From the NCBI GenBank assembly GCA_919902675.1, contig CAKKRH010000001.1:3-64002 (forward strand): a stretch of DNA of 64,000 bases, in the 5' to 3' direction. Position numbers and translations under genes: made by a program. Position 1 is the stretch's first letter; every line of letters starts with the position of its first letter. Source of the stretch: Omnitrophica bacterium GWA2_41_15 (GTDB lineage Bacteria; Omnitrophota; Gorgyraeia; Gygaellales; UBA12090). Positions 9,506 to 62,796 of the stretch are shown here, piece after piece. The notes under the pieces were generated by a model. The model made no database searches and was not told where the DNA came from. It was given only the letters and a program-made list of their open reading frames with translations.

Positions 9506-12454
9506 ATGATCCGTAAAATAATTAATTTAATCTTAATCTTGGGGTTGTTGTTCCAGCAGACAGGTTTCAGCTATGCCGCCGGAGAGCTGAACATAGCCAA
9601 TTACCTTAGCCAGGCGCGTAGCGCGATAGTCACGCCGGACCAATTCCGCCCTCCGCAGTTAAGGTTTATCTCCTATGACACTAAAAGCAACGATTTCAAG
9701 CTATTTTTAGACTCCCCAGCTCCTGAACTCCTAAACTCCCAAAACCCTTTGAACTCTCCAACTCCCAAACTTAACGACTCTACCCAGGAACTCTTTAACT
9801 ACTTCCTGACCGGTCTGGCCTTACCCAATGACACCTTCTGGGTGAACCTAAGGCCGGATGCCCCGGATAATATCATAGACCCGCTTTTAGAGAAGACTGA
9901 GATCGGTAAAATCTTCTTAGAGGCCGACCTGCAGTTAAAGAAGGACACCGCAAGCTACACCTCGCCCCAGAACCCGCAAGGCAGACAATATTGGGATAAG
10001 CTGTATAAGAAGGCCGGAGAGTTGTTTGGTAGTGAGAACATCACCATCCCCACCATCACCCGGCCCTGGATAGTGCCTAATGAAGTGATTGTGAGAGAGA
10101 CCGAGGATTCGGCGTATATCTACAAAGCCACCCTCAAAGTGATGCTGGAAGAGGACTATCTAAAAAACTATCAGCAATCCAATCCAAACCACCAACCTCT
10201 AACCTCCAACTATAGTTTCTCCGGCCCCAGGATGAAAGAGTTGAATCAGTATTCCACCCAGCTGATCAAGGAAACTATTATTCCTCAACTGACCAAAGAG
10301 GTCAATTCCTCAAAGAGATACGCCAAGCTAAGGCAGGTCTATTATTCCTTAGTCCTTTCCCGCTGGTTTAAGCAGAAATACAGTCGCGGGTCTGCGGTCT
10401 CGGGTCCCCAGTCAGCAGGACAAGATACTTCTTATGTCAAGCTTATAAATTCCAGGGATTTAACTAATCTTGCTTCCCATGAGCCTTGTGATAAGCAGGC
10501 CTACTTCCAGGCCTACCAGAAGTCCTTTAAAGACGGGGAATATAATCTCCAAGAGACCCTACCCACCCCCATCGGCCAGAGTATCCGCAGTTATGTCAGC
10601 GGAGGGATAGTTGCGAGCCCTATAACTTTTGCAGGGATAAATGCGGAAGAGAATATTGGAGTAACAAAGGCATTGACTGGCCAACCTCCGGCCACTACCG
10701 CCTCGCCGCTGGATATTGACGAGATAGTAAAAAATATTGGCGATATGTTTACAGGAAGAGGACTTAGAACAGCAAACCTTCTTGGCGTGAAATATCCGGA
10801 AAAACTTTCTGAAGAAATAAAAGTACTTATTAAAGACTATTATGCCAACCCCGATGATGCTGTTAAATTTAGCAAGGCAAGTAAGGCATTGAGGGAAGTT
10901 GTTAAAGTAGAAGGATATGATCAAGAGTCTAAGGAAATAATAGAAAAAGGAATAACATGGTCGATAATCGCTACTGGCGAATTAGTGAATTATTATCAGA
11001 AAAGTATCCCTCTGGGCTTAGAACTCATTTCAAAGTTAGAGGGTACATTAGATAAAAAAATTATATTTACAACTCAAAAAGGGCGTGAAGCATATAAAGA
11101 TGAATTTGGTAATGCTCAACGAGAACTTAAAAAGTATGTGGCGGTTGAGAAGGCGGGGGGATTTCTAGAAGAAATTATGGATAGAGGGGAGGACATATAT
11201 ATTTTAAAATATAAATTTATGGAAGCAGAAGCTAAATTTTCCGCCGGCTCGCCGCTGAATGGCGAAGCGTTAGAAGTTGAATTAGTAAAATTACCAAAGA
11301 CCGAAAAACTGCTAAGCGATTTAATCAAAATTTTCTCTAAGGTGGATAAGAGCGCTCAATTGGGACCTCAAATAGCTATTTTAATAGCAGAGATGCTCAC
11401 AGAGAGTGGGGTGACTCCCTTTCCCGGTGAAAGTCCTAATGTATATTTAATGCGCGGAGCTGTTATGAAATCCGTAACCACTTTTTTTTCTAGCAAAAAA
11501 TTATACAATTTATATTCCAAGGATAGATTTTCTATAACAGAAGTCTTAGATAAGATTAAAGAAGGGCTACTGTTAGAAAAGTCGACAAATATTCCAGGGA
11601 GAAAGATATCAGAGGAAACTAAAAAGTACATCATTGCGCTCATAGATTTATATATTGAGGCAGTAGATAATGCAAAAAATGCTATTGAGAAGCAAGGAGA
11701 AACTTCCGTCGCCTCGCCACTGACATTAGAAAAAATGAAAAGTATAGTTTTTGAACAGGCGGGCATTCTTAAGGACCAATATAGTTCTTCCAATAACGAA
11801 AGAAATGAAATTGAAAATATGGTTGCAAATGTCCCGAACATGAGAACAAAAAAAGAATTGAAGGAATTTGTGCTTACTGAGATGATTTCCGGTATAAACA
11901 GTTACATAAAAAAAAGAAATTCAGAAAGCGAAGAGGAATTGCGATCAAGAAACTTTGAGGCTTATAAAGAAATCTATCGTAAAGTAATGTTATTGATTTC
12001 AGTGAAGGAAGCATTGGTATTATTAACTAAAGGATATGCTAATCATTCTGGCGCAGCCTCGCCGGCTAAAGGAGTTTCTTCGTCTCTACAGACAAAACGC
12101 GGCGGTATTGACTTTACCGATCGGGCTTTGCAGATTAAGCTGGAGCGGGTGGGGAGCTTTGCGGATTTAAAAATGATGTTGCCGGGGATAAGCAATGTGG
12201 AGGCAATTGACCTGGATAATGAGTTTAAGCAGATCCAGGCGATGGTTAGCTCTAGCATTCGTCCTTCGGATACCCGGATCCTGGAATTCGCCGCGGCCTG
12301 CTATTACCGGGGCGAGTTTGACTACAGGCTCACCCAGGTAAGCTCCTGTATCAAAGCGGCCCACCTTGCCGATGAGCTCTTGGGCCGGGAAAGCTCGCAG
12401 GCCCTGCGCCTGGCCACCATACTGCCGGACGCGCCGTATGGTGGAAGAATTTGA
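9506..12454 (+). CDS. large secreted protein of unknown function
   Basis: 982-aa ORF with a signal peptide (MIRKIINLILILGLLFQQTGFSYAAG) and GGAGGG RBS. It has low-complexity P/N/S tracts, a K/E-rich AT-rich middle and a GGIDF-containing C-terminal domain. Confidence 0.6.
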   Translation: MIRKIINLILILGLLFQQTGFSYAAGELNIANYLSQARSAIVTPDQFRPPQLRFISYDTKSNDFKLFLDSPAPELLNSQNPLNSPTPKLNDSTQELFNYFLTGLALPNDTFWVNLRPDAPDNIIDPLLEKTEIGKIFLEADLQLKKDTASYTSPQNPQGRQYWDKLYKKAGELFGSENITIPTITRPWIVPNEVIVRETEDSAYIYKATLKVMLEEDYLKNYQQSNPNHQPLTSNYSFSGPRMKELNQYSTQLIKETIIPQLTKEVNSSKRYAKLRQVYYSLVLSRWFKQKYSRGSAVSGPQSAGQDTSYVKLINSRDLTNLASHEPCDKQAYFQAYQKSFKDGEYNLQETLPTPIGQSIRSYVSGGIVASPITFAGINAEENIGVTKALTGQPPATTASPLDIDEIVKNIGDMFTGRGLRTANLLGVKYPEKLSEEIKVLIKDYYANPDDAVKFSKASKALREVVKVEGYDQESKEIIEKGITWSIIATGELVNYYQKSIPLGLELISKLEGTLDKKIIFTTQKGREAYKDEFGNAQRELKKYVAVEKAGGFLEEIMDRGEDIYILKYKFMEAEAKFSAGSPLNGEALEVELVKLPKTEKLLSDLIKIFSKVDKSAQLGPQIAILIAEMLTESGVTPFPGESPNVYLMRGAVMKSVTTFFSSKKLYNLYSKDRFSITEVLDKIKEGLLLEKSTNIPGRKISEETKKYIIALIDLYIEAVDNAKNAIEKQGETSVASPLTLEKMKSIVFEQAGILKDQYSSSNNERNEIENMVANVPNMRTKKELKEFVLTEMISGINSYIKKRNSESEEELRSRNFEAYKEIYRKVMLLISVKEALVLLTKGYANHSGAASPAKGVSSSLQTKRGGIDFTDRALQIKLERVGSFADLKMMLPGISNVEAIDLDNEFKQIQAMVSSSIRPSDTRILEFAAACYYRGEFDYRLTQVSSCIKAAHLADELLGRESSQALRLATILPDAPYGGRI

Positions 12455-13143: not shown

Positions 13144-13584
13144 ATGCGGATAACTTATAGAGGGGATTATGCCCTGCGGGCGGTGCTGGATTTGGCAGCG
13201 CATTATAACCAGGGGGTGGTAACTATCCACCAGCTGGCCAAGAGGGCGGACGCCCCGGTGAAGTTTCTGGAGCAGGTGCTCTTGGACCTGAAGAAAGGAG
13301 GGTTTGTTGAGAGTAAGCGCGGCACAAACGGAGGGTATCTTTTATCCCGGCATCCTAAAAATATAAAGATGGGCGAGGTGGTCAGGTTCATAGATGGGCC
13401 GATTGAGCCGATTGCCTGTGTTGAGGAGCGCTATTCCGGCTGTAAGAGCATGCCGGCGTGTGTGTTAAGGAAGGTGTGCAAGGAGGTGGCCGTGGCTACC
13501 TCTAATATAGTGGATAAGGTAACATTTGAGGATTTAGCCAGCCAGGCCAAAACAGGGAAAAAGGAAGCGGTGTATTCTATTTAA
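13144..13584 (+). CDS. Rrf2 family transcriptional regulator (IscR/CymR-like, Cys-cluster type)
   Basis: MRITYRGDYALRAVLDLA wHTH N-terminus, GGYLLSR, and a CVEERYSGCKSMPAC cysteine triad. Confidence 0.85.
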   Translation: MRITYRGDYALRAVLDLAAHYNQGVVTIHQLAKRADAPVKFLEQVLLDLKKGGFVESKRGTNGGYLLSRHPKNIKMGEVVRFIDGPIEPIACVEERYSGCKSMPACVLRKVCKEVAVATSNIVDKVTFEDLASQAKTGKKEAVYSI

Positions 13585-13599
13585 GGAGGAGAAAGAGAA

Positions 13600-14334
13600 A
13601 TGAGTCTGTTGAACAATAAAGATGATTTAAAGGATTTGGTGGAAAAACTTAATTTTAAGGAGAAGGTGGATAGGTCGCTTGAGCTGATCAAAGAGGCATA
13701 TCAGAAATACGGCGATAGTATGGTAGTGGCTAACAGCTTAGGCAAGGATTCGGTCTGCGTCTGGGATTTGGCAATGAAGGTCAGCCCGAAAATCCGGGGG
13801 TTTATTGTTACTACCCGTTTTAAGCCGGCAGAGACCATCAAATTTATGAATGATGAAGTCCGTAAGTACCCCCAGCTTAAAATTTATAAGAATGATGTCA
13901 AAATTGCCGATAAGCTTTATGAGACCGATCCGGATAAATGCTGCGATCTTTTAAAAGTGGAGCCGGTCAGCCGGGCCATTGAGGAGATGCAGGTCAAATG
14001 CTGGGTTACCGGACTGCGCTGCACTGAGGGCCGCACCCGCACCGATTATAAAGAAGTTGAGGAGCGGGATAAGGGCCTGGTTAAACTTAATCCTATACTA
14101 ATTTGGAAGGAAAGAGAAGTCTGGCAGTATCTGGCAATTTACGGAGTCAGGGTTAATCTTTTATACGCCGAGGGATACCGTTCCTTAGGCTGTGCCCCTT
14201 GCACCAAGATTACCAGCGACGATAACGAACGGGCCGGACGCTGGCTGGGCACCAGTAAATGCGGCGGAGAATGCGGAATACACACCCGCCCCTTAAAGAA
14301 GGTGCGTTCAGATGACGCTTTGCAGTTAATATAA
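13600..14334 (+). CDS. cysH: phosphoadenosine/adenosine phosphosulfate reductase (CysH family)
   Basis: PP-loop-like SLGKDSVCV, LGCAPCT, and a C-terminal ECGIH catalytic motif. Confidence 0.8.
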   Translation: MSLLNNKDDLKDLVEKLNFKEKVDRSLELIKEAYQKYGDSMVVANSLGKDSVCVWDLAMKVSPKIRGFIVTTRFKPAETIKFMNDEVRKYPQLKIYKNDVKIADKLYETDPDKCCDLLKVEPVSRAIEEMQVKCWVTGLRCTEGRTRTDYKEVEERDKGLVKLNPILIWKEREVWQYLAIYGVRVNLLYAEGYRSLGCAPCTKITSDDNERAGRWLGTSKCGGECGIHTRPLKKVRSDDALQLI

Positions 14335-14342
14335 CGATTGAT

Positions 14343-15185
14343 ATGGGTTTAAAAGTTGAAAACCTGAGCAAGTCTTTCTGGCGTAAAGATGTGGGGAATA
14401 TCCCCGTCCTTGAGGATGTTAGTTTTGAGCTTAAGGACGGGGAATTTGCCTGCGTGCTTGGGCCTTCAGGGTGCGGTAAATCCACCCTGCTCAATATTGC
14501 CGGGGGCCTGGTTAAGCCGGATAAGGGCAGTGTCTGTGTTGACGGTTCCCGCGTGAGCGAACCCTCGCCGGAGCGGGTGATTATTTTTCAGGAGCCCACG
14601 CTTTTTCCCTGGATGACGGTTCTTGAGAATGTGCTTTTTGCTTTAAAGACTAAACCGATCAAGAAGCCGGATAAACAGGATATTGCCATTTCTTTCTTAA
14701 GGAAGGTGCACCTGGGGAAGTTTATTAACGCCCATCCCCATGAGCTTTCCGCGGGAATGAAACAGCGGGTGGCTATTGCCCGGGCCCTGGCCATGGAGCC
14801 GAAAATACTGCTTATGGATGAGCCGCTCAGTCTGGTTGATGACCAGACCCGTTTTATGCTTCACTATGAAATCCAGCAGATTTTTAAAGAGACCAAAAAG
14901 ACTGTTTTGTTTGTTACCAGTTCGGTGGAAGAGGCAGTATGCCTGGCGGATAGATTATTTGTTTTTTCCGCCCGGCCGGGAAAGATTTTATTTGAACAAA
15001 AAATAGGCTTTTCTCATCCCAGGAGAGAAACCGATCCCCAGTTGGTATTCTTGCAGGATAACATCAGCACTATATTGGAGAGAGAATTTGAAAAGACAGC
15101 CAAAGAGGAGATGGACATTGAATACGTTCTTACGAAGAGCGGCGTTTTGGTTCCTTTTGATCGTAATCTGGGAAGCAATATTTAG
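14343..15185 (+). CDS. ABC transporter ATP-binding protein (NitT/TauT, sulfonate/nitrate/taurine type)
   Basis: Walker A GPSGCGKST, signature LSAGMKQR, Walker B LLMDEP. Confidence 0.85.
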   Translation: MGLKVENLSKSFWRKDVGNIPVLEDVSFELKDGEFACVLGPSGCGKSTLLNIAGGLVKPDKGSVCVDGSRVSEPSPERVIIFQEPTLFPWMTVLENVLFALKTKPIKKPDKQDIAISFLRKVHLGKFINAHPHELSAGMKQRVAIARALAMEPKILLMDEPLSLVDDQTRFMLHYEIQQIFKETKKTVLFVTSSVEEAVCLADRLFVFSARPGKILFEQKIGFSHPRRETDPQLVFLQDNISTILEREFEKTAKEEMDIEYVLTKSGVLVPFDRNLGSNI

Positions 15186-15873
15186 GTTTAACGTATTTCC
15201 GGCCCGTAATTTTCCTTCCTTGTGTATGGTATTGGGAAAATTCGCCGAAGGATTTATCTCCGGAGAATATTTATTATCCCTTAAGACCAGCCTGTTGAGA
15301 ATCGGTATCGGATACAGCCTGGCAATTATTTTAGGTATTTTCTTAGGGTTAGCCATGGGCCTGGTGAAGTTTATTGACGAGGGTGTAAGCGGGATACTCC
15401 TGGGCCTGCAGTCAATGGGACACGCGGCCTGGGTGCCTTTCGCGGTTTTATTCTTTGGGGAAAATGAACTGGCGGTTATTTTTATTGTCCAGATAAGCGC
15501 GATGATTGTAATTACCCTGAATACCGAAAGCGGGATAAAGTTTGTTTCACCCCAGCTCATAAACCAGGCGCGCATCAGCGGGATAAAGGGGGTAAGCCTG
15601 TTTCGGGAGGTGGTGTTGCCGGCGGCAGTGCCTTCAATAATTACCGGGATGCGCTTAGGCTGGGCTTTTTCCTGGCGGGGATTGGTTACGGCGGAGATTT
15701 TGGTTTCGGGCTTGGGTATCGGCCACATCCTTATGCGGGCCAAGGAGCAGAAAGATATGGCCTATGTTATGGCGACAATGCTTTTGATTGCCTCTATTTC
15801 TATTATTGTGGACAATCTGATTTTTAAGAACCTAGAGAACAGCGTGCGTCGGCGCTGGGGAATAGCAAAGTAA
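15088..15873 (+). CDS. ABC transporter permease (SsuC/TauC-like)
   Basis: Six-TM BPD-transporter-like ORF. The track start overlaps the ATPase by 98 nt. A TTG at about 15118 behind AGGAGA is a more likely start. Confidence 0.75.
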   Translation: MKRQPKRRWTLNTFLRRAAFWFLLIVIWEAIFRFNVFPARNFPSLCMVLGKFAEGFISGEYLLSLKTSLLRIGIGYSLAIILGIFLGLAMGLVKFIDEGVSGILLGLQSMGHAAWVPFAVLFFGENELAVIFIVQISAMIVITLNTESGIKFVSPQLINQARISGIKGVSLFREVVLPAAVPSIITGMRLGWAFSWRGLVTAEILVSGLGIGHILMRAKEQKDMAYVMATMLLIASISIIVDNLIFKNLENSVRRRWGIAK

Positions 15874-15875
15874 AC

Positions 15876-15903
15876 CCAAAATCAAAATGCGAAAATCAAA
15901 ATT
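15876..15903. repeat. heptanucleotide array (CAAAATN x4)
   Basis: CCAAAAT CAAAATG CGAAAAT CAAAATT spanning the permease/JAMM junction and the first JAMM codons. Confidence 0.55.
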
Positions 15904-16306
15904 ATGGGTAAAAAGGGAGATTTACGATGAGCTTCTCCGGCACTGTCTGAGAGAGCCGGCAAAGGAGTCCTGCGGCATACTGGCCGGCCGCTCCGGCAGG
16001 ATAGAGAGGATTTTTCCCTTAGCCAATATCTCTGATACTCCCAAACTTTGTTATATGATTGACCCTAAGGAACAACTTTCAGTTTTTAAGGAACTGCGCG
16101 AGGATAATTTGGAGTTAACAGCGATATATCACTCCCATGTGGATGTTCAGGCTTACCCGTCAAAAAAAGATGTGGAGCTGGCTTTTTATCCGGAGAGTTC
16201 TTATGTTATAATTTCCCTAAGCAAACAAAAACCGCCTGAGACGCGCTCCTTTAGGATCATCGAGGGCAAGATTGAGGAAGAAGAATTAGAAATAGTTAGT
16301 AATTGA
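15887..16306 (+). CDS. JAMM/MPN+ (Mov34) metalloprotease, Mec/QbsD/HcyD-like
   Basis: ESCGIL (catalytic Glu) and HSHVDVQAYPSKKD (HxHx7Sx2D JAMM motif). Confidence 0.8.
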   Translation: MRKSKLWVKREIYDELLRHCLREPAKESCGILAGRSGRIERIFPLANISDTPKLCYMIDPKEQLSVFKELREDNLELTAIYHSHVDVQAYPSKKDVELAFYPESSYVIISLSKQKPPETRSFRIIEGKIEEEELEIVSN

Positions 16307-16309
16307 TTT

Positions 16310-17326
16310 ATGTATAAATTAAAGAGACTACGCGTGAGTAAAGCAATGAGAGATTTGACGGCTCAAGTCAACTTGGGCATTCACAATCTGGTTATGCCTT
16401 ATTTTGTCCGCGAGGGCAAAAAGATAAGACAGCCCATAGAGGCGATGCCCGGGGTTTTTCGTTTTTCGCGGGATGAATTATTGAAAGAAGTTGAACAGTT
16501 AAGGCTTGCCGGTGTCCATTCGCTTATCCTCTTTGGCCTGCCCGGGGAAAAAGATGATGCCGGTCTAAAGGCCTATTCTGAAAACGGGGTTATTCAAAAA
16601 GCGGTCCGGGCCTTAAAGAAAAATTTTGGCGATGAACTGGCAATAATTACCGATGTCTGTTTGTGCGGCTATACTAAGCATGGGCATTGCGGCATCTTAA
16701 AAAGGCAAAAGGCAAAAGGCAAAAGGCAAAAAGAATTTTCTATTGATAATGATGAGACGCTAAAGGTTTTGGTTAAGATTGCCCTTTCTCACGCCCGGGC
16801 TGGGGCGGATATTGTGGCTCCCAGCAGTATGATGGACGGCCAGGTTCAGGCCATTCGCCAAGAGCTGGATAAAAATGGTTTTAGCGAAACCGCGATTATG
16901 GGCTATTCCGCTAAGTTTGCCTCTAACTTTTACGGGCCTTTCAGGGAGGCCGCCGGTTCCGGGATGAAATTCGGTGATCGAAAAAGCTATCAAATGGACT
17001 TTAGAAATTCGGATGAGGCTTTAAGGGAAATTGAGGCGGATATTCAGGAAGGCGCGGATATACTGATGGTCAAGCCGGCGCTGGCCTATCTGGATATAAT
17101 CGCTAAAGCCAAAGAAAGATTCGCCGTTCCTTTAGCCGCGTTTAATGTCAGCGGGGAGTATAGTATGGTAAAAACATACTGTAAGTCCACAGTCCACAGT
17201 CCACAGTCCACAGGAATAGAAAAAGAGCTGGCTTTGGAGATTTTGACCGCGATAAAAAGAGCCGGCGCAGACATAATTATTACTTATTACGCGAAAGAAG
17301 CGGCTGGATGGCTGAAGAAAACCTAA
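16310..17326 (+). CDS. hemB: porphobilinogen synthase (delta-aminolevulinate dehydratase)
   Basis: CLCGYTKHGHCG zinc site, ADIVAPSSMMDGQV, VKPA active-site Lys, NVSGEYSM, KRAGADIIITYYA. Confidence 0.9.
   Translation: MYKLKRLRVSKAMRDLTAQVNLGIHNLVMPYFVREGKKIRQPIEAMPGVFRFSRDELLKEVEQLRLAGVHSLILFGLPGEKDDAGLKAYSENGVIQKAVRALKKNFGDELAIITDVCLCGYTKHGHCGILKRQKAKGKRQKEFSIDNDETLKVLVKIALSHARAGADIVAPSSMMDGQVQAIRQELDKNGFSETAIMGYSAKFASNFYGPFREAAGSGMKFGDRKSYQMDFRNSDEALREIEADIQEGADILMVKPALAYLDIIAKAKERFAVPLAAFNVSGEYSMVKTYCKSTVHSPQSTGIEKELALEILTAIKRAGADIIITYYAKEAAGWLKKT
16704..16731 (+). repeat. (GGCAAAA)x4 heptanucleotide array inside hemB
   Basis: GGC recurs at 16704, 16711, 16718 and 16725. The array is translated as KRQKAKGKRQK directly after the HGHCGIL zinc-site motif. 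Confidence 0.85.
17184..17212 (+). repeat. (AGTCCAC)x4 heptanucleotide array inside hemB
   Basis: GTCCACA at 17185, 17192, 17199 and 17206. The array is translated as KSTVHSPQST between NVSGEYSMVK and EKELALEIL. Confidence 0.85.
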
Positions 17327-18546
17327 CAAACTACAAATTACAAACTACAAACTACCACCTTTTTCGCGAAGCAAAAAAGGTTATCCCCGGCGGAGTAAAT
17401 AGCCCGGTGCGCTCGTTTAAGGCGGTGGGAGGCGCTCCGGTTTTTATCAAAAAGGCCTCCGGCTCAAAATTTCTCGCTGAAGACGGTAAAACCTATATAG
17501 ATTACTGTATGTCCTGGGGGGCGTTATTATTAGGCCATGCTCACTCTGAGGTTGTATCCGGGGTAAAAAAGGCGGTTGAAAAAGGCACCAGCTACGGCGC
17601 GGCTACCAAGGCCGAGACCGAATTCGCCAAGATTATTACTCGAGCCATTCCTTCCTGCGAGCTGGCGCGTTTGGTCTCATCAGGTACTGAAGCGGCGATG
17701 TCGGCAATCCGGGTTGCCCGGGGTTATACCAGGAAAAATAAAATCATTAAGTTTAAGGAATGTTATCACGGCCACAGCGATTATTTCTTATCGGGAAAAA
17801 GCGCCGGCATCCCGGAAAATATAAGCCGGGATGTCTATAGTCTTGATTATAATAACTTAGAGCAAGCGGAAGAAGCCTTAGAAAAAGATAAGGATATTGC
17901 CTGCGTGATTGTTGAACCGATCGCGGCCAATACCGGTTTGATCCTGCCTTTAAAAAGTTTCTTAGAAGGCCTGCGCAAGCTGACCTTAAAGCATAAAGCC
18001 CTGCTTATTTTTGATGAGGTGATTACCGGCTTTCGTTTTTGTTTTGGAGGCGTCCAGAATATCTTTGGGATTATCCCGGATTTGACCTGTTTAGGCAAGA
18101 TTATTGGCGGGGGTTTTCCTTTGGCCTGCTTTGGGGGAAAAAAAGAAATTATGCGCCACCTTGCTCCACTGGGAAGCGTTTATCAGGCCGGCACATTATC
18201 CGGAAACCCGGTCGCGGTCCAGGCCGGGCTTAAAACTTTAGAAATTATCAAAAAGCCCGGTTTTTATAAAAGGCTCAATGAAAAAGCCGGGTCTTTTTAT
18301 AAAAAAATAGACGGAATAATTGAAAATAAGAAAACGAATATTGTCTTAAACCGTTTTGGGGCGATGTTTCATTTCAGTTTTAAAGATAAAAAACAGTTCA
18401 GCGGATTTTTTCATAATCTATTAGCCCAAGGGATTTATCTTTCGCCGGCAGGCGATGAGGTGTGTTTTGTCTCGGCGGCGCATACGGATAAAGATTTTGA
18501 AATAACTTTAAAAGCATTGAATCATTTAAAAGAGAGGTTGGTATGA
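17308..18546 (+). CDS. hemL: glutamate-1-semialdehyde 2,1-aminomutase
   Basis: LFREAKKVIPGGVNSPVRSF, FDEVITGFR, LGKIIGGGFP (PLP Lys). Confidence 0.9.
   Translation: MAEENLTNYKLQTTNYHLFREAKKVIPGGVNSPVRSFKAVGGAPVFIKKASGSKFLAEDGKTYIDYCMSWGALLLGHAHSEVVSGVKKAVEKGTSYGAATKAETEFAKIITRAIPSCELARLVSSGTEAAMSAIRVARGYTRKNKIIKFKECYHGHSDYFLSGKSAGIPENISRDVYSLDYNNLEQAEEALEKDKDIACVIVEPIAANTGLILPLKSFLEGLRKLTLKHKALLIFDEVITGFRFCFGGVQNIFGIIPDLTCLGKIIGGGFPLACFGGKKEIMRHLAPLGSVYQAGTLSGNPVAVQAGLKTLEIIKKPGFYKRLNEKAGSFYKKIDGIIENKKTNIVLNRFGAMFHFSFKDKKQFSGFFHNLLAQGIYLSPAGDEVCFVSAAHTDKDFEITLKALNHLKERLV
17327..17354 (+). repeat. (CAAAYTA)x4 heptanucleotide array at hemB stop / hemL N-terminus
   Basis: CAAACTA CAAATTA CAAACTA CAAACTA, translated as the NLTNYKLQTTNYH extension of HemL. 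Confidence 0.8.
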
Positions 18547-18803
18547 TTACTATCGTCCTTAACGGAAAGAAAGAAGAATTGGAAAAAGAATTGACGGTTT
18601 TGGAATTATTAAAGAAGAAAAATATCCGCCCGGAAGTGGTGACAGTGGAATTAAACGAGAAAATCCTTGGCCGTCAGGAATTTGAGCAGACAATTATCCG
18701 GAATAATGATAAAATAGAGTTTGTTTATTTTATGGGAGGCGGCGGTTCGACTCAGCTGCCTTCGGCAGTTTTGCTCACCGTTGTAGAGTCGAAGGAGAGG
18801 TGA
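18543..18803 (+). CDS. ThiS-like sulfur-carrier (ubiquitin-fold) protein with 18-aa extension after the GG motif
   Basis: 68-aa ThiS-like core ending FVYFMGGGG, followed by STQLPSAVLLTVVESKER. ATGA overlap with hemL. Confidence 0.65.
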   Translation: MITIVLNGKKEELEKELTVLELLKKKNIRPEVVTVELNEKILGRQEFEQTIIRNNDKIEFVYFMGGGGSTQLPSAVLLTVVESKER

Positions 18804-18804
18804 T

Positions 18805-19737
18805 ATGCCATTTTCAGATAAAGTTGCCAATAATGTCTTAGAGCTTATTTGTAATACCCCGATTATCCGGCTTAACCGCTTGCCGGATAAGGATTCGGCG
18901 GTTATCTATGCCAAGTTAGAACAGTTTAATCCCGGAGGCTCGGTTAAAGACCGGATATGTTTGTCTATGATCCAGGAAGCTGAAAAAGAAGGCCTGCTTA
19001 AAAGCGGCTCAACCATAATTGAGCCGACCTCCGGTAACACCGGCATAGGCCTGGCAATGGTGGGAGCGGTAAAGGGTTGCCGGGTAATTCTGACTATGCC
19101 TGAGACTATGTCTATAGAGAGGATATATATCCTGAAATCTTTGGGCGCGGAAGTAGTGCTTACCCCGGGGATAGAGGGAATGAGCGGGGCAATCAAAAAG
19201 GCGGAGGAGCTTCTGAAGAATACCCCGAATAGCTTTATGCCGCAGCAATTTAAGAACAAGGCTAATCCCAAAATACACCGCGAAACCACCGCCAGGGAAA
19301 TCTTGAATGTTCTGGGAAATAAAATAGACGCCTTTGTATGCGGCGTAGGCACCGGCGGGACTATTACCGGTGTGGGGGAGGCCTTAAAAGAAAAGAATCC
19401 TAGGATAAGAGTTATCGCGGTTGAACCGGAGGCCTCGGCGGTCCTTTCCGGAGAAAAGCCGGGCGCGCATAAAATCCAGGGGATAGGCGCGGGATTTGTT
19501 CCTGAGATATTAAACCGCGAAGTTATTGACCGGATTATCAAGGTTTCAGATAACGATGCTTTTAAGACGGCCAGAAGATTAGCCAAAGAAGAAGGATTAT
19601 TCGTGGGGTTATCCAGCGGGGCCGCGGCCTGGGCCGCCTTAAAAATAGCCCAGGACTTAGGAAAAAATAAAACCGTAGTTACCATATTTCCGGATACCGG
19701 GGAAAGATACGGGAGTATGCAGCAATACTTTGAGTGA
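18805..19737 (+). CDS. cysK: cysteine synthase (O-acetylserine/O-phosphoserine sulfhydrylase, CysK/CysM family)
   Basis: NPGGSVKDR PLP-Lys motif, TSGNTG, GVGTGGTITG. Confidence 0.9.
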   Translation: MPFSDKVANNVLELICNTPIIRLNRLPDKDSAVIYAKLEQFNPGGSVKDRICLSMIQEAEKEGLLKSGSTIIEPTSGNTGIGLAMVGAVKGCRVILTMPETMSIERIYILKSLGAEVVLTPGIEGMSGAIKKAEELLKNTPNSFMPQQFKNKANPKIHRETTAREILNVLGNKIDAFVCGVGTGGTITGVGEALKEKNPRIRVIAVEPEASAVLSGEKPGAHKIQGIGAGFVPEILNREVIDRIIKVSDNDAFKTARRLAKEEGLFVGLSSGAAAWAALKIAQDLGKNKTVVTIFPDTGERYGSMQQYFE

Positions 19738-19744
19738 GAATAAA

Positions 19745-22102
19745 ATGTTTAAACTGCCTAACGAAGTAAAAGAGAGCATAAAAAATTACCGTAGTTCTTT
19801 GGAAGACCTGCTTAGCGGAAAAATCAGCCCGGCGCGCTTTACCGGCGTGCGGGTGCCCTGGGGGCTTTACAGCCATCGCGGGGGCAAGGTCTTTATGAGC
19901 CGCGTCCGGATTCCCGCAGGGCAGGTCAGCGCCGAACAGCTTAAGGCCATCGCGCGCTGCGCCCGCGCCTATGGGAATGGGATCACTCATATCACCACCA
20001 GGCAGGATATCCAAATCCATGAAGTAAAGATTGAAGATACGATTAAGGTTATTGAGTATCTGAAGGATTTTGAGCTTTCTCCCCGGGGCGGAGGAAGCAA
20101 TACCGTGAGGAATGTTACCGCTTGTGTTTTCTCCGGGATATGTCCGGATGAGGTCTTTGATACCGCCGGATACGCCATTTCTCTCACTGAATACCTTCTG
20201 GCCCAGGACAGTTCCTTTAACCTGCCGCGTAAATTCAAGGTTGCTTTCTCCGGATGCGCTAAGGACTGCGCGGCGATAGTGGTTAATGATGTCGGACTCT
20301 TAGCTAAAATAAAAGACGGGCAAAAAGGTTTTCAGGTTTTTGTCGGCGGAGGAATGGGCGCGGAGTCGCTTACCGGGCATCTCTTGGAGGAGTTTATCTC
20401 CGAGGCTGAGTTAGGTTATTGCGTCAGCGCCGTCAAAAATGTGTATTCCAAGCAAGGCGACCGCCGGAATAAGCACCATAACCGCTTAAGGTTTTTGATT
20501 AAAGATAACGGTATGGATGTTTTTAAGAAATGGTATCAGGAGGAGTTAAGAGTATTGAAAGAGGCCGAATACATCAACTTGAGGAATATTGAACCGGCGT
20601 CTCCTCAAGTCTCTGGCGGGGATATCCCTAAGGTGGAGGATAAAGACTTTAATGAATTTATAAAATACAATCTTATTGAACAGAAACAAAGCGGTTTAGT
20701 GATTGTGGAATTAAGGATTCCCCGGGGTGACCTTCCCGCGGATAGGCTGGAGAAAATCGCCGCGTTGGAAAATTATTTTCCCGGCCTGGAATACCGGGCT
20801 TCCCAGAATCAAAATCTTTGCCTTTGTAATATCCGAAAGTCCGATACCCATGAGTTGTTTTTAAAGCTGAAAGATATTTTAGAGGATTTTATCTATCCGG
20901 ACAGCCTCCAGGATGTGGTCTGCTGTAAGGGCGCGCTTACCTGTAATCTCGGCCTATGTAATTCACCGGCTTTGACCGAGGAGCTGGAGAAGCTGATAAG
21001 AGATAATTTTATCGCAAAGGCAGTGCTGAAAAAGATAAATATCAAGATAAACGGCTGTCCTAATGCCTGCGGCCAGCATCCCCTGGGGCTTATTTCCCTG
21101 CACGGAATGGTGCGCCGGGTAGGCGGGCATCCGGTTCCCTTTTATAAACTGCTTTTAGGAGGCAGGAAAGGCATTACCCTGACCCGCCTGGCTAAAGACA
21201 CCAAACTGATGATACCGGCTAAGAACTTGTTATTGTTCTTTAAGGACTTCCTGGATAAAATAAACAGCCAGATTGATGAAAATACGGATATCTATAGTTA
21301 TTTTGATGAACAGGCGGAAAGCGCGGCCAGAGAGATTACCCAGCGCTACGGCTATGTTCCGGCTTATTCGGAGAATAAGGATTATTACATTGATTGGGGC
21401 AGAAGCGAAGAGTTTTCCCTGGAGGGTATGGGGCCGGGTGAGTGCGGCTCAGGGGTTATGGATATGATTGATACGGATTTAAGCGATGCCAAAATTCATC
21501 TGGAAGCCGCGCGCGAAGATAATTATTCTGTCCAGGAAATAAAGAAGGCTTTATTCTTCAGCGCCCGGGCCCTTTTGGTGGTGCGCGGAGCTGACCCCCG
21601 GGATGAATTAAGCGCCTTAAATGATTTTGTGGAAAAGTTTGTCCGGGCAGGATTGGCTGATGGCAAATTTTCCCGGCTTAAAGAAGTATATGTCTCTTTA
21701 TCTGAAGGCCTAAGCCCTAAAGAGAAGGAAGAGAAATTTTTATACGCCCAGGAATATCTGGAACACATAAAAGAAGTATATAAAAATATGGACCCCCAGT
21801 TTAATTTTCCTAAATATTCCGCCCCTGTCTCTCAACAGGAGGTAAAAGTAGAAGTTGAGCCATCGGAAGTTAAATCTCCGGTTTTGGATTTAAAGGGGGT
21901 ACGTTGCCCGATGAATTATGTCCAGGCGAAATTATACTTAGAGAATATCAAGATCGGCGAGACGGTTGAGATATGTTTAGACGAGGGTGAGCCGATCCAG
22001 AATGTCCCGGTCAGCCTTAAAAACGACGGCCAGGAGATCTTAGGGATTACAAGAATAGAGAATTATTATAAGGTGCTGGTAAAAAAATTAGTTGATAGTT
22101 GA
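19745..22102 (+). CDS. assimilatory-type sulfite reductase (NIR_SIR siroheme/4Fe-4S) fused to C-terminal TusA/SirA-like domain
   Basis: TACVFSGIC...SGCAKDC and CCKGALTCNLGLC...NGCPNAC cluster motifs. C-terminal LDLKGVRCPMNYVQAKL...GETVEICLDEGEP is TusA-like. ATG 19745 is preferred over track GTG 19730. Confidence 0.75.
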   Translation: MFKLPNEVKESIKNYRSSLEDLLSGKISPARFTGVRVPWGLYSHRGGKVFMSRVRIPAGQVSAEQLKAIARCARAYGNGITHITTRQDIQIHEVKIEDTIKVIEYLKDFELSPRGGGSNTVRNVTACVFSGICPDEVFDTAGYAISLTEYLLAQDSSFNLPRKFKVAFSGCAKDCAAIVVNDVGLLAKIKDGQKGFQVFVGGGMGAESLTGHLLEEFISEAELGYCVSAVKNVYSKQGDRRNKHHNRLRFLIKDNGMDVFKKWYQEELRVLKEAEYINLRNIEPASPQVSGGDIPKVEDKDFNEFIKYNLIEQKQSGLVIVELRIPRGDLPADRLEKIAALENYFPGLEYRASQNQNLCLCNIRKSDTHELFLKLKDILEDFIYPDSLQDVVCCKGALTCNLGLCNSPALTEELEKLIRDNFIAKAVLKKINIKINGCPNACGQHPLGLISLHGMVRRVGGHPVPFYKLLLGGRKGITLTRLAKDTKLMIPAKNLLLFFKDFLDKINSQIDENTDIYSYFDEQAESAAREITQRYGYVPAYSENKDYYIDWGRSEEFSLEGMGPGECGSGVMDMIDTDLSDAKIHLEAAREDNYSVQEIKKALFFSARALLVVRGADPRDELSALNDFVEKFVRAGLADGKFSRLKEVYVSLSEGLSPKEKEEKFLYAQEYLEHIKEVYKNMDPQFNFPKYSAPVSQQEVKVEVEPSEVKSPVLDLKGVRCPMNYVQAKLYLENIKIGETVEICLDEGEPIQNVPVSLKNDGQEILGITRIENYYKVLVKKLVDS

Positions 22103-22117
22103 TAGTTTATGGTTTAT
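22090..22117. repeat. heptanucleotide array (GTTGATA GTTGATA GTTTATG GTTTATA)
   Basis: Read directly across the sulfite reductase stop codon. Confidence 0.75.
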
Positions 22118-22144
22118 AGCAAACCTAAACTAAAGGAGCAGGCT

Positions 22145-23419
22145 ATGAGCTATGTGTTAGGTTTAAAATGCCGGGAATGTGGCCGGGAATACCCTAAGGA
22201 TGTTTTGTTTGTCTGCGAGTATTGCTTTGGCTCTTTAGAAGTAAATTATGATTACAAAGCTATCAAGAAAAACCTGACCAAAGAAACTCTCTTGGGCCGT
22301 CCCAAAAATATGTGGCGCTATAAGGAGCTCCTGCCCATTGATAAAGACCCGGCAGTCGGGCTAGATTCAGGATATACTCCTTTGATTAAGGCGAATAATT
22401 TGGCCAGGGTTTTGGGAGTGAGAGAGCTTTATCTCAAAGACGATTCCGTAAATCATCCAACCTTGTCTTTTAAAGACAGGGTGGTCTCCGTGGCTATCTC
22501 CAAGGCCAGGGAATTTGGTTTTGACACCGTGGCCTGCGCCTCAACCGGCAATCTGGCTAATTCCGTCTCGGCCCAGGCCGCATCCTGCGGGCTAAAGGCT
22601 TATATTTTTATTCCGGCTGACCTGGAAACAGGTAAGGTGGTAGCCTCGCAGATTTATAATCCCAACCTTATCGGTATTGAAGGAAACTATGATGAGGTTA
22701 ACCGTCTTTGTTCGGAGATTGCCTCCAGATACCGCTGGGCCTTTGTGAACATCAATATCCGTCCCTTTTACGCCGAGGGCTCCAAGTCAATGGGGTATGA
22801 GATTGCCGAGCAATTGGATTGGAAATTGCCCAAACATATTGTGGTGCCGTCAGCAGGCGGCTCGTTGATTACTAAGCTTTGGAAGAGCTTTAAGGAATTG
22901 AAAGAGCTGGGATTTCTGGAGAAGGCGGATACTAAGGTTTACTGCGCCCAGGGCCAGGGCTGCGCCCCGATAGTTACCGCGATCAAGGAAAAGTCCGAGG
23001 TAATTCGGCCGGTTAAGCCCAAGACTATTGCCAAGAGCCTGGCGATCGGAAATCCCGCCGACGGATATTATGCCGTAGACACGGTGAGAAAATCCGGCGG
23101 TTTTGCTGAGGAGGCCTCTGACGAAGAAATTGTAGAGGCAATAAAATTATTAGCCAAAACCGAAGGAATTTTCACCGAGACCGCCGGAGGGGTTACTTTG
23201 GCGGCAGCCAAGAAGCTAATCGAGCAGGGGATTATTCCTAAAGACGAGTCAATTGTCATCTGCATTACCGGAAACGGCCTTAAGACCCTGGAAGTGGTTA
23301 CTAAGTCTTTGCCCAGGCTGGTGAAAATCAAACCAAACTTAGCCAGTTTTGAAGAGCATATTAAAAACGGCGCGCACCAGAAGATTTCCGAGAACAAGGT
23401 TATTGAGTATTATATTTAA
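22145..23419 (+). CDS. threonine synthase-like PLP enzyme with N-terminal zinc ribbon (MetM-like candidate)
   Basis: CRECG...CEYC zinc ribbon, HPTLSFKDR PLP-Lys motif, ASTGNLANS. ATG 22145 behind AAGGAG is preferred over track start 22109, which lies in the heptad array. Confidence 0.8.
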   Translation: MSYVLGLKCRECGREYPKDVLFVCEYCFGSLEVNYDYKAIKKNLTKETLLGRPKNMWRYKELLPIDKDPAVGLDSGYTPLIKANNLARVLGVRELYLKDDSVNHPTLSFKDRVVSVAISKAREFGFDTVACASTGNLANSVSAQAASCGLKAYIFIPADLETGKVVASQIYNPNLIGIEGNYDEVNRLCSEIASRYRWAFVNINIRPFYAEGSKSMGYEIAEQLDWKLPKHIVVPSAGGSLITKLWKSFKELKELGFLEKADTKVYCAQGQGCAPIVTAIKEKSEVIRPVKPKTIAKSLAIGNPADGYYAVDTVRKSGGFAEEASDEEIVEAIKLLAKTEGIFTETAGGVTLAAAKKLIEQGIIPKDESIVICITGNGLKTLEVVTKSLPRLVKIKPNLASFEEHIKNGAHQKISENKVIEYYI

Positions 23420-23430
23420 GGAGGAAAGAA

Positions 23431-23718
23431 ATGATGGCAAAAGTTAAGGTGAGGATTCCGGCGCCCCTGCAGAAGATTACCCAGAATAAACAGGAGGTAA
23501 TTGCTGAGGCAAAGAATATCAAAGAGCTGATTCTGGATTTAGAGAAACAGTTTCCGGGGATGAAAGACCGCCTGCTGGATGAAAGCGGGAAGATTCGGCG
23601 TTTTATTAATTTCTATGTTAATGATGAGGATATTCGTTTTCTGAAACAGGACGAAACCCAGTTAGTTGAGGGAAGTGAAGTTTCCATAATTCCCGCTATT
23701 GCCGGCGGCCTAAAATAG
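23431..23718 (+). CDS. MoaD/CysO-like sulfur-carrier protein with GG followed by 2 extra residues (LK)
   Basis: 95-aa beta-grasp-like ORF ending SIIPAIAGG-LK. GGAGG RBS. Confidence 0.65.
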   Translation: MMAKVKVRIPAPLQKITQNKQEVIAEAKNIKELILDLEKQFPGMKDRLLDESGKIRRFINFYVNDEDIRFLKQDETQLVEGSEVSIIPAIAGGLK

Positions 23719-23740
23719 TTTATAACTAAGAGGAAAAAAG

Positions 23741-24565
23741 ATGGCGTTAACTAATGAGCAGATTGACCGGTATTCCCGGCAGATAATTTTACCAAATGTC
23801 GGGGGTAAGGGCCAGGATAAGATTCTTAAAAGCAAAGTTTTGGTTATCGGAACCGGCGGCCTGGGGGCGCCCTGCAGTTTTTATCTGGCCGCCGCCGGGG
23901 TGGGAAAAATCGGTTTAGTGGATTCGGATAAGGTTGAGTTGAATAACCTGCAAAGACAGATTGTGCATACTACTTTGGATGTAGGCATACCCAAGGTTGA
24001 ATCCGGGAAGAAACGGTTGAACGCCTTAAATCCGGATACCGAGGTAGTTACCTATAATTTAAGGTTAGATTCCGGTAATATTCTGGATGTGATTAAAGAT
24101 TACGATATCGTGGTGGACGGCTCGGATAATTTCCCCACCCGTTATTTAGTCAATGATGCCTGCGTGATTGCTAAAAAACCTTTAGTGCATGCCGGAATTT
24201 TTCGTTACGACGGCCAGATTATGACTATCCTGCCGGGGAAAGGCCCTTGTTACCGCTGCCTGTTCCCGGAGCCGCCTCCGGCCGGGGCTGTGCCCAGTTG
24301 TCAGGAGGGAGGGATACTCGGGGCAGTGGCCGGGGTTTTGGGAGTGCTCCAGGCCAATGAGGCCCTGAAATTTATCCTGCAAAGCGGAGAGCTTTTATCC
24401 GGAAGGCTGTTGATATTTAACGCCTCAGATGCTTCTTTTAGGACAGTTAAAGTGCCTAAGGATAAAGATTGTCCGGTTTGCTCAGAACATCCCACAGTTA
24501 CCAAATTAATTGATTATCAGGAATTCTGCAGTTTGAAGCAGAATAAGGATTGCAGTATAAAATAG
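23741..24565 (+). CDS. ThiF/MoeB/HesA family E1-like adenylyltransferase (no rhodanese domain)
   Basis: RYSRQIILPNVG, GTGGLGAP nucleotide loop, DNFPTRY, CYRC and CPVC zinc pairs. Confidence 0.85.
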   Translation: MALTNEQIDRYSRQIILPNVGGKGQDKILKSKVLVIGTGGLGAPCSFYLAAAGVGKIGLVDSDKVELNNLQRQIVHTTLDVGIPKVESGKKRLNALNPDTEVVTYNLRLDSGNILDVIKDYDIVVDGSDNFPTRYLVNDACVIAKKPLVHAGIFRYDGQIMTILPGKGPCYRCLFPEPPPAGAVPSCQEGGILGAVAGVLGVLQANEALKFILQSGELLSGRLLIFNASDASFRTVKVPKDKDCPVCSEHPTVTKLIDYQEFCSLKQNKDCSIK

Positions 24566-24571
24566 GAGATA

Positions 24572-24814
24572 ATGATGGCAAAAAGAATAATAAAGCTTAC
24601 TTTCCCCAAGGATCTGATTAAAGAACCTTTAACCTTCACTATGGCTAAGAAATATAATATTATGCCCAATATCCGCCGGGCCAAGGTTACCGAGAGCGTG
24701 GGGGAGCTGGTTCTGGAGTTAGACGGCCAGGAGCAGGATTTGGATAAGGGCGTTGAGTTTTTGAAGAAGTCAGGGGTAATTGTGGAATCTATCGTCGGAG
24801 ATGTAATCGGGTAG
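24572..24814 (+). CDS. NIL domain protein
   Basis: 80 aa. The IIKLTFPKDLIKEPLTFTMAKKYNIMPNIRRAKV pattern resembles the NIL domain of MetN C-termini and methanogen homocysteine-synthesis partners. Confidence 0.6.
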   Translation: MMAKRIIKLTFPKDLIKEPLTFTMAKKYNIMPNIRRAKVTESVGELVLELDGQEQDLDKGVEFLKKSGVIVESIVGDVIG

Positions 24815-24837
24815 GGGCGAACGGACCTTCGCCCCTA
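24812..24837 (+). terminator. GC-rich hairpin at operon end
   Basis: TAGGGGCGAA cggacc TTCGCCCCTA, a 10-bp perfect stem that includes the stop codon. No T-run follows. Confidence 0.4.
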
Positions 24838-24852
24838 GCGTGAATTACTAAA

Positions 24853-25575
24853 ATGAATCTATACGGCAGAAATTCGATTTTTGAGCGTTTAAAGATAAAT
24901 CCTAAAAGCATAAAAAGGATACTTCTTGAAGAGGGTAAAGATTTAAGCAGTATCAGGCGCCTCTCTAAGTCTAATGGTATCCCTTTTAATTGTTTTCCTC
25001 AAGCCAGATTTGATAAGTTCTCCCGGAATATCCGTTCCCAGGGCGTGATTGCCGAAGTGGAGGAATTTCAATATGCCAACCTGGAGGATATACTTGATCC
25101 GGAAAAAGTAAAGCCCCCAATCATCTTATTTCTGGATAACCTAAACGACCCGCAAAATTTAGGGGCGATACTGCGAACCTGCGGCTGTTTTGGAGGATTC
25201 GCGGTAGTGCTTCCTAAACATGATTCGGTGGAGGTAACTGAGGCGGCTTTAAGGGTAGCCTCCGGCACGGAAAATTATGTTCCGGTGGCCAAGGTTAACG
25301 GTTTATTGCCGGCAGTTATTTTGGCCAAGGAGCGCGGTTTTTGGATTGGCGGGGCGATGACCACCGGAGGCCAGGACATTGCCTCAGTCAGATTAAACTT
25401 TCCCTTAGGCCTGATAATCGGCTCCGAGGCCAAAGGCATCCGGCAGTCTTTGACCAAGGAGTTGGATTTCGGGCTTTCCATCCCTATGCACACCGGAGGC
25501 TTGTCCTTTAACGCCGCCACAGCCGCCGCGATATTCGCTTACGAAGCCATACGCCAGAAAAGAAAACAAAGTTAA
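24853..25575 (+). CDS. rlmB: SpoU/TrmH family RNA 2'-O-methyltransferase (RlmB-like)
   Basis: LDNLNDPQNLGAILRTC, IIGSEAKGI, LSFNAATAAAI motifs. Confidence 0.8.
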   Translation: MNLYGRNSIFERLKINPKSIKRILLEEGKDLSSIRRLSKSNGIPFNCFPQARFDKFSRNIRSQGVIAEVEEFQYANLEDILDPEKVKPPIILFLDNLNDPQNLGAILRTCGCFGGFAVVLPKHDSVEVTEAALRVASGTENYVPVAKVNGLLPAVILAKERGFWIGGAMTTGGQDIASVRLNFPLGLIIGSEAKGIRQSLTKELDFGLSIPMHTGGLSFNAATAAAIFAYEAIRQKRKQS

Positions 25576-57004: not shown

Positions 57005-57144
57005 AACATTCTATGAAATCCCAGACGCGAAGAATATCTATAACAATATGAGCAATAAAGAGATATTAAAAAAGAAGGTTTTTGTCCGTACTTTCGGCTG
57101 GCCAGTGGCAGGATTATAGTAATGCGATGAGGAGCTTGGCCGAG

Positions 57145-57714: not shown

Positions 57715-57780
57715 GTCGGGCGAGGCGCGGTTGTCAGTGATTGTGGTCAAAAAAATCGATGTCAATGTCAATTCAATCGA

Positions 57781-57856
57781 GGCAATAGGCGATAGGCTTT
57801 TGGCGATAGGATTAATAACCTATAGCCTATGACCTATCGCCTATTGCCTTTTTTAG
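57781..57856 (+). terminator. long heptad-built hairpin with T-run
   Basis: GGCAATAGGCGATAGG...CCTATCGCCTATTGCC (outer 16 bp perfect) followed by TTTTTT. Confidence 0.6.
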
Positions 57857-60848: not shown

Positions 60849-60852
60849 TTCA
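60798..60852 (+). repeat. 28-nt tandem duplication of the left end of the 127-bp repeat
   Basis: ATATCAAAAGACGCTCTATATAATTCA at 60798-60824 and 60826-60852, with a further partial ATATCAAAA at about 60788. Confidence 0.8.
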
Positions 60853-62669: not shown

Positions 62670-62731
62670 TTGGCTCAGATAAAAAGCTTATGAATGATTC
62701 TAACAAGGAAAGTAAAAATATATCCGAAGGC

Positions 62732-62787
62732 CAAACGTGCGGGCTGCCAAGTCCGGCTGCAAACGTGCGGGCTGCCAAGTCCGGCCG
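62732..62787 (+). repeat. 28-nt tandem direct repeat (2 units)
   Basis: CAAACGTGCGGGCTGCCAAGTCCGGCTG followed by the same unit with one T-to-C change. Confidence 0.8.
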
Positions 62788-62796
62788 CCAAGCATG

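Follow-up and report, generated by a model that had tools for sequence, protein, structure and literature searches.

Tandem heptanucleotide arrays lie in frame within the hemB gene of an Omnitrophota bacterium and recur across the phylum

Heptanucleotide simple sequence repeats (SSRs) are the most abundant class of long SSRs in prokaryotes, with polymerase slippage as the rationale, according to the summaries of work by Mrazek and colleagues in PMC4679880 and PMC4692102. Geobacter metallireducens carries 49 copies of an element made of four tandem GGACCGG heptanucleotides (PMC2700814), and GGGNATC heptamers in Xanthomonas and Nostoc are found preferentially as four units, close to the ends of open reading frames (ORFs) (PMC4692102). 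In Beggiatoaceae, cyanobacteria and Bacteroidetes, direct repeats of TAACTGA occur in 2–6 copies at gene starts and stops; they form a family with one dominant unit, most of whose members lie between genes, ahead of start codons, and whose members within ORFs are chiefly at the periphery of the protein, and translational regulation has been proposed for it (PMC4679880). Phase-variable contingency loci are exemplified by the tetranucleotide and heptanucleotide SSRs of Haemophilus (PMC2651432, PMC8262952). Here we analyze a 64,000-nt stretch of DNA from Omnitrophica bacterium GWA2_41_15 (contig CAKKRH010000001.1, positions 3–64,002; hereafter the window), in which two heptanucleotide arrays lie inside hemB, the gene for porphobilinogen synthase. 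Our literature search found no paper combining heptamer arrays with Omnitrophota.

The hemB gene (positions 16310–17326, forward strand) encodes an intact, zinc-type enzyme of 338 residues that matches PF00490 over residues 3–334 (E = 8e-135; profile positions 3–317 of 317) and whose closest relative in the PDB is 5lzl (E = 6e-102). The zinc triad C117/C119/C127 and the active-site lysines K202 and K255 are kept, all of them in invariant alignment columns, and the protein is conserved and apparently functional. Arrays were detected in the 64-kb window with Tandem Repeats Finder (TRF) and with a direct periodicity scan over periods 4–15 at a threshold of at least three perfect copies. The scan returned three perfect arrays of period 7 and none of periods 4–6 or 8–15, and 100 Markov shuffles of the window yielded no perfect period-7 array. 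Both hemB arrays lie in frame within the ORF on the forward strand, with 100% matches in TRF. Array 1 (16700–16731, 32 nt) is a perfect (AAAAGGC)x4.6 covering codons 131–141 (KRQKAKGKRQK), and array 2 (17184–17213, 30 nt) is a perfect (AGTCCAC)x4.3 covering codons 292–302 (KSTVHSPQSTG). A preliminary description of this DNA had reported two in-frame heptanucleotide arrays in HemB, and TRF, the periodicity scan and ORF mapping bear this out; its (GGCAAAA)x4 at 16704–16731 is array 1 in another register, and its coordinates for array 2 (17184–17212) hold except at the end, which we measured at 17213. The two arrays are real and statistically exceptional. A G-quadruplex explanation, which calls for four G-tracts of at least three G, is ruled out, as the units AAAAGGC and AGTCCAC contain no GGG tract. 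RNA folding of the two arrays was not significant (z +1.17 and −0.07), and an Rfam search of the window returned no known RNA family.

Comparison with relatives defines what each array adds. Both array positions (site 1 and site 2) are hypervariable in an alignment of 40 Omnitrophota HemBs. The relatives L084 and L088 carry an empty site 1, TTAAAAAGGCAAAAAGAATTT (ILKRQKEFSI), and the window's site 1 equals this sequence plus exactly three AAAAGGC units, adding 21 nt and seven residues. Site 2 of L084 reads ACGCAGTCGTCAGCTATTGAA; the empty site 2 holds CAGTCGTCAG, a proto-repeat of 1.4 copies of a 7-mer, and the window's AAG(TCCACAG)x4 exceeds the empty sites by 21 nt. In ten pairs of orthologous proteins from the window and L084, the two hemB arrays are the only internal indels of two residues or more. 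Terminal differences, at the N-termini of the JAB-domain protein and HemL, both fall within short-unit tandem arrays, and a 12-residue difference in the second PALP gene stems from an ORF start called inside a TAGTTGA array. Loop lengths were also measured over 120 Omnitrophota homologs: the site-1 loop has base lengths of 9 or 10 residues and filled lengths of 16, 17 or 18, and the site-2 loop measures 8–9 residues in 59 homologs, 15, 16 or 17 in 39, and 10–12 or 14 in none. The HemB loops are quantised, having either the base length or seven to eight residues more.

The same alignments refine two earlier claims. Relative to Escherichia coli HemB, HMMER alignments give ten additional residues in the site-1 loop and about six in the site-2 loop. 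The roughly ten extra residues noted previously at site 1 are thus correct as a total against E. coli, but only seven come from the array, since empty-site Omnitrophota already have three more. Array 2 had been thought to replace a conserved AAxxGW(I/L)DE segment; it is instead a seven-residue insertion into a lineage-specific loop, AYxQSxxxEK. No aligned relative carries the same residues without the repeats, a pattern that had been named as one that would count against the arrays.

Filled alleles differ between lineages in both unit and combination. At site 1, L086 carries (AGTCCAC)x4.6 and L002 carries (CGTCCAT)x4, and 8-nt arrays (AGTCACAA) occur in L001, L004 and L085. Site 2 is occupied by (AGTCACA)x4.3 in L002, (GAAGTTN)x4 in L085 and L088, (AGCCAGA)x4–5 in L013 and L213, and (GTCACCAA)x3.75 in L086, and L087 has the same array as the window with one substitution. 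Array alleles are mosaic even inside 90% clusters: P0124 joins the window's site 1 to an L085-type site 2, and P0143 and P0020 differ in having a filled and an empty site 2, respectively. Such combinations suggest, from the sequences compared, that homologous recombination has reassorted alleles among lineages.

Other inserts were observed at the same position. In L087 (871–916), the window-type AAAAGGC array of site 1 is split by an in-frame insert of about 45 nt with a hairpin, CCCGCAAAAGCGGG (z −2.8). Site 1 of L212 (10391–10477) holds an 87-nt in-frame insert (..AVDSLSFMVDGKKKNK..LSAINDKL..) with two inverted TAGTTKA-type heptamer arrays; it forms a hairpin (z −4.3), one arm matches window positions 22095–22112 at 17 of 18 nt, and an insert of this type is present in seven other proteins, including P0023, P0049, P0050, P0052 and P0146. 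BLAST against the Omnitrophota sequence of this study returned no further full copies of the L087 and L212 inserts. In L213 the same hairpin tip is taken up by a tandem duplication of 39 nt (PAGSGLPSDRQSH x2), showing that site 1 accepts other kinds of insertion too. P0021 carries a KPET(R/S)xQKPE peptide, corresponding to an AACCAGA-type array, twice within one HemB, once at each site.

To place the sites in the protein, we used an AlphaFold model of the window's HemB built on the alignment (predicted template modeling score 0.87). Site 1 is predicted to form the tip of a β-hairpin (strands 130–132 and 143–145) that comes directly after the third zinc cysteine, with a predicted local distance difference test score below 50 at residues 139–141. 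Site 2 corresponds in the model to the loop joining helices 282–293 and 299–318, and the flexible active-site lid (about 203–230) is a segment apart from both. Both sites are, according to the model, low-confidence surface elements away from the lid; of the two placements considered beforehand, surface loops or the lid, the first applies, as hairpin tip and inter-helix loop, and the second does not. Solved HemB structures are themselves of unequal length at site 1 (5lzl versus 1b4e).

The process is not peculiar to hemB, a point that the preliminary description did not bring out: it is phylum-wide, and the window itself has a third array where hemB stops and HemL begins, and more elsewhere. 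Our census covered the 64-kb window and about 115 kb of relatives. Period-7 arrays reach 8.95 per 100 kb in hemB-centred loci of Omnitrophota versus 0.46 in other phyla, a comparison that speaks mainly for that neighbourhood; the second commonest period in these Omnitrophota loci is 8, and copy numbers cluster at 4.1–4.6 (11 of 13 arrays). A metagenome scan for (AGTCCAC)x3 matched at least 120 contigs. Among the contigs listed, GC content ranges from 0.26 to 0.70, the taxa are very mixed and array lengths spread over 21–34 nt, a breadth that leaves a universal four-copy peak for AGTCCAC unsupported. The contigs listed are rich in other heptamer arrays too, with 79 in 682 kb. On contigs of about 41–48% GC, in-frame AGTCCAC arrays lie in the LeuRS editing domain, MoeA, a GltD-like oxidoreductase, FabD, a MiaB-like radical-SAM enzyme, Fmt and PyrD.

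FabD offers a second detailed case. The named relatives of the array-bearing FabD are all Omnitrophota, and its loop measures 25 residues in 78 of 120 homologs and 32, that is, seven more, in four. Three Omnitrophota contigs carry perfect four-copy arrays of AGTCCAC, AGTCAAC and AAGTATC in FabD, identical in position and total length. Because the units differ and position and length do not, these arrays reflect concerted whole-array replacement rather than independent point mutation. The same units also occur at non-homologous loci across Omnitrophota contigs. Amplification of 7-nt units is common throughout the Omnitrophota.

Within the window, array 3 (17326–17355, forward strand), an (ACAAACT)x4.3 with one mismatch found by TRF, starts on the final nucleotide of the hemB stop and is translated as residues ~7–16 (LTNYKLQTTNY) of HemL, glutamate-1-semialdehyde aminomutase, whose gene (17308–18546, forward strand; PF00202, E = 1e-69) overlaps the end of hemB. 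By HemL alignment and junction comparison, the N-terminus of this protein is ten residues longer than in relatives lacking array 3. An imperfect (TAGTTGA)x4.4 (22089–22119, forward strand) lies over the stop codon of a sulfite reductase–TusA fusion, and is confined to the gene end because the perfect unit carries stops in all three forward frames. A perfect (CAAAAGT)x3.7 (43094–43119, forward strand) begins at the second codon of a gene for an outer-membrane efflux protein (MQKSKVKSQN...), a degenerate TTTCTCA-like 7-nt array (44427–44473, forward strand) lies in the N-terminal signal/transmembrane region of a CusB/HlyD-family protein, and TRF reports an imperfect 7-nt array at 10187–10210. 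Inverted TAGGCGA/TAGGCTA heptamer arrays cluster at 57140–57849 without an assigned strand (57140–57245, 57595–57700 and 57780–57849; TRF). In DNA folding they give long hairpins (z −5.5 and −3.9), and heptamer arrays are therefore found as palindromic elements too. These arrays flank a small gene of the 23S_rRNA_IVP family (57255–57614; PF05635, E = 2e-36; weaker bAvd-like match). The region at 55–62 kb contains no reverse transcriptase or other candidate enzyme, only toxin–antitoxin-like genes and the 23S_rRNA_IVP gene.

All 7-nt units within the window differ from one another, and 15 of 22 arrays are 28–32 nt long. Arrays inside coding sequence use units that are stop-free in all three coding-strand frames, and stop-containing units (TAGTTGA, TAGGCGA) are found only at gene ends. 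The HemL and JAB alignments revealed no further internal array sites, only terminal differences. A CAAAAT/AAAATCA array at 15877–15902, which extends from shortly before the JAB-domain gene across its start, explains the 6-residue N-terminal difference from L084. In HemL of L086 and L210 we observed a 26-residue C-terminal extension (GVIASEAKQSQKRDCFVADAPRNDKVVSKR) that is missing from the window and other relatives and that, to our eye, resembles read-through into a palindromic intergenic repeat. TRF also returned 28-nt tandem repeats near the window end (60796–60852, x2.0 perfect; 62730–62800, x2.5, 88%). AGTC/AGTT cores appear enriched among the units, in a sample that is small and partly ascertained through the search pattern. 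The hemB–hemL pair sits inside a sulfur cluster (13144–25575) with an Rrf2 regulator, a PAPS reductase, an ABC transporter, a JAB peptidase, two pyridoxal-phosphate-dependent cysteine-synthase-like genes, the sulfite reductase–TusA fusion and ThiS/ThiF. This cluster is syntenic in L084 and L212, and the location supports the earlier remark that the neighbouring sulfite reductase draws on hemB for its sirohaem.

We then considered the stability of the arrays. Three independent assemblies over the region (L081–L083), comprising one 2.15-Mb contig and two short-read contigs from other samples, are 99.4–99.7% identical to the window and carry all arrays unchanged. The short-read contigs align to the window gap-free and the long-read contig differs only by 1-nt indels; no copy-number difference was seen in the window's arrays among the three. 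The four other members of the 90% cluster (P0121–P0124) have full-length products of 326 or 338 residues. L004 (DOMD01000141.1, metagenome-assembled genome UBA12090) carries 2.75 copies of the site-2 (GTCACCAA) array, compared with 3.75 in L086 and the P0012 cluster (14 members), and this 8-nt loss puts the last ~45 HemB residues out of frame; judging by its sequence, the allele may be truly null or may result from misassembly. The preliminary description had argued that one-unit changes break the frame, seven not being a multiple of three, and L004, with its one-unit loss, provides a natural example. The fragility or switching that this seemed to imply finds no counterpart in L081–L083 or in the full-length cluster members. 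P0126 (106 residues, ending at site 1) was rejected as a frameshift allele: L209, the contig that encodes it, belongs to the same long-read assembly as L081, and 1-nt deletions break every gene on it, which identifies the truncation as long-read noise. Of the ~45 mismatches between the window and L081–L083, 24 fall within a 100-bp tract (17260–17357) spanning the hemB 3′ end and the ACAAACT array, where the window's version matches L087 and that of L081–L083 matches L085. Its pattern of matches resembles that of a short stretch exchanged by recombination, with the arrays as its limits.

Taken together, we favor, with a probability of about 0.68, the reading that the hemB arrays are heritable alleles produced by in situ tandem amplification of short native sequence and filtered by reading frame. 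The process would start from a native 7-nt unit flanked by a direct repeat of 3–4 nt (about 1.4–1.6 copies), to which three further units would be added, probably through slipped-strand or microhomology-mediated mispairing in replication. Since seven is not a multiple of three, only three-unit steps (21 nt, seven residues) would preserve the frame and survive in an essential gene; such frame selection would therefore leave one-copy empty and four-copy filled alleles and the quantisation by seven or eight residues. Units are mostly 7 nt, less often 8 nt, across the Omnitrophota, and arrays would become visible only where the protein tolerates extra residues, namely the β-hairpin tip, the inter-helix surface loop and gene termini. 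Turnover is concerted, whole arrays differing in unit sequence between lineages with position and length kept. The inserted peptides are most likely near-neutral passengers, neither functional modules nor an on/off switch of haem synthesis. The data show directly the arrays and their stability, the 21-nt difference from empty sites, the quantisation of loop length, the recurrence across the phylum and the placement in the structure; we infer the neutrality, the slippage mechanism and the route between the one-copy and four-copy states.

Several observations weigh against amplification filtered by frame. Stepwise slippage needs frameshifting alleles with one or two extra units in essential single-copy genes, none of which was observed for the arrays of the window. 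Compared with L084, the array at the start of hemL and certain site-1 arrays of relatives are extra over their full length (30 nt), and no proto-unit can be seen. AGTCCAC recurs at HemB site 1 (L086), HemB site 2 (window), FabD and other loci, and such recurrence at non-homologous sites, as also with the KPET-type peptide of P0021, is not predicted by a purely local origin. Non-coding arrays likewise cluster near four copies, for which frame selection cannot account; the same preference is reported in Geobacter (PMC2700814) and in Xanthomonas and Nostoc (PMC4692102). These unexplained points keep alive, as a minority hypothesis, an intrinsic four-unit mechanism.

Such a mechanism would be a dedicated or sequence-biased process that writes or erases arrays of four 7-nt units, ~28–30 bp, in one step, by reiterative copying at a nick or break or through a factor with a 7-nt footprint. 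On this view it is the arrays that selection or mechanism would favor, possibly as DNA or RNA binding sites, rather than the peptides. We regard this as unlikely. It would accommodate copy numbers that cluster at 4.0–4.6 inside and outside coding sequence, the swapping of four-copy arrays of different units at one FabD position with length constant, identical units at unrelated loci, inverted array pairs that make hairpin elements, and the four-unit preference of heptamers within and between genes in Geobacter (PMC2700814) and in Xanthomonas and Nostoc (PMC4692102). However, three added local units fully account for site 1, AGTCCAC arrays on the listed metagenome contigs show no four-copy peak over their 21–34 nt, and a single-unit deletion allele exists in L004. 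No reverse transcriptase or other candidate enzyme was seen near the arrays, which lack G-tracts and significant RNA structure, and the sample of non-coding arrays is small. In a broader version, to which we assign a slightly lower chance again, the Omnitrophota, and perhaps also Geobacter, Xanthomonas, Nostoc and Beggiatoaceae, may have an unrecognised DNA transaction that makes, homogenises and collapses four-copy 7-nt arrays in three-unit jumps. If so, these jumps would rewrite surface loops of essential proteins concertedly, bypassing frameshifted intermediates, and the ~28–30 bp size of four units would reflect the footprint of the machinery rather than reading-frame selection.

The remaining explanations fit the data less well. 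Were the arrays contingency tracts, gain or loss of one unit would reversibly switch hemB and thus the supply of haem and sirohaem. Non-triplet repeats within coding sequence and the frameshifting one-unit deletion of L004 are what such tracts would produce, and Omnitrophota may depend on hosts and be capable of scavenging tetrapyrroles, but a switch is improbable here. The arrays have only four units and show no indel across three assemblies from different samples, and the products of P0121–P0124 are full-length; the reading frame is intact in all empty alleles and in all those filled with other units, and the only other truncated product examined, P0126, is noise. Nor are the hosts dispensable: hemB aside, the same arrays lie in LeuRS, FabD, Fmt and PyrD, which are implausible switch targets. 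Small mobile or foreign insertions into permissive sites, resembling miniature inverted-repeat transposable elements, repetitive extragenic palindromes or short dispersed repeats, appear rather more doubtful still. The clearly different site-1 inserts elsewhere (45 nt in L087, 87 nt in L212 and seven other proteins, and the 39-nt duplication in L213) and the presence of one unit at unrelated loci would agree with cassettes of this kind, yet the window's arrays have no inverted repeats, hairpin or significant structure, their units are already present once at the empty site, the insert length is an exact multiple of the unit, and BLAST of the L087 and L212 inserts gave no further full copies. 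Short repeats can be misassembled, which had been raised as a caveat from the outset, but an assembly or sequencing artefact is hardly credible: the arrays are identical in four assemblies of Illumina-style and long-read origin, are shorter than a read and leave the ORF intact, and homologous arrays occur in dozens of database proteins.

The usual view holds that non-triplet microsatellites are either forbidden in essential coding sequence or serve as phase-variation devices. The Omnitrophota instead show such repeats as a routine source of in-frame seven-residue loop insertions in core enzymes, the HemB and FabD cases being confirmed Omnitrophota and the LeuRS, Fmt and PyrD cases metagenome contigs of similar base composition. 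Empty and filled alleles, together with concerted unit replacement, amount to a natural experiment in loop tolerance, and offer a tractable system for the old question of why 7-nt units, in about four copies, are favored in many bacteria. For annotation, 7-residue periodic low-complexity segments in Omnitrophota proteins are real, and single-unit errors or variants will yield apparent pseudogenes.

Among known systems, contingency loci share with the window's arrays a non-triplet SSR in or near a gene, where a one-unit change alters frame or expression; their tracts, however, are long, polymorphic in close isolates and located in surface or host-interaction genes, whereas the window's arrays are short, invariant and in housekeeping genes. 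The Geobacter elements have four units, as here, but constitute one GC-rich family read as regulatory RNA, while the window's arrays have other units, derived from local sequence and AT-rich. Unlike the GGGNATC repeats, they lack G-tracts and lie within coding sequence. In the TAACTGA family, forward units carry stops in all frames, as does TAGTTGA at window position 22089, and the reverse orientation reads as the 7-residue periodic LSVISYQ, to be compared with SYQLSAISYQ at HemB site 1 of P0022 and P0026. Omnitrophota arrays differ from it in having many units and in lying in internal loops of essential enzymes. A further comparison is with the prokaryotic heptanucleotide SSRs and short tandemly repeated repetitive (STRR) sequences, those of the cyanobacterium Calothrix PCC 7601 among them, which consist of tandem 7-nt units with period 7 over-represented, are dispersed over the genome, often beside gene ends, and have slippage as their proposed origin. 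STRR sequences are defined by a small number of unit families, each spread over many loci within a genome. The AGTCAAC unit of one FabD allele is a rotation of what we take to be the STRR unit CAACAGT. The window's arrays belong to this known, poorly understood class, and are new in the Omnitrophota. What sets them apart is the phylum, many units where other genomes have two or three families, and their documented presence inside conserved enzymes, where alleles are either empty or filled and loop lengths are quantised in steps of seven residues.

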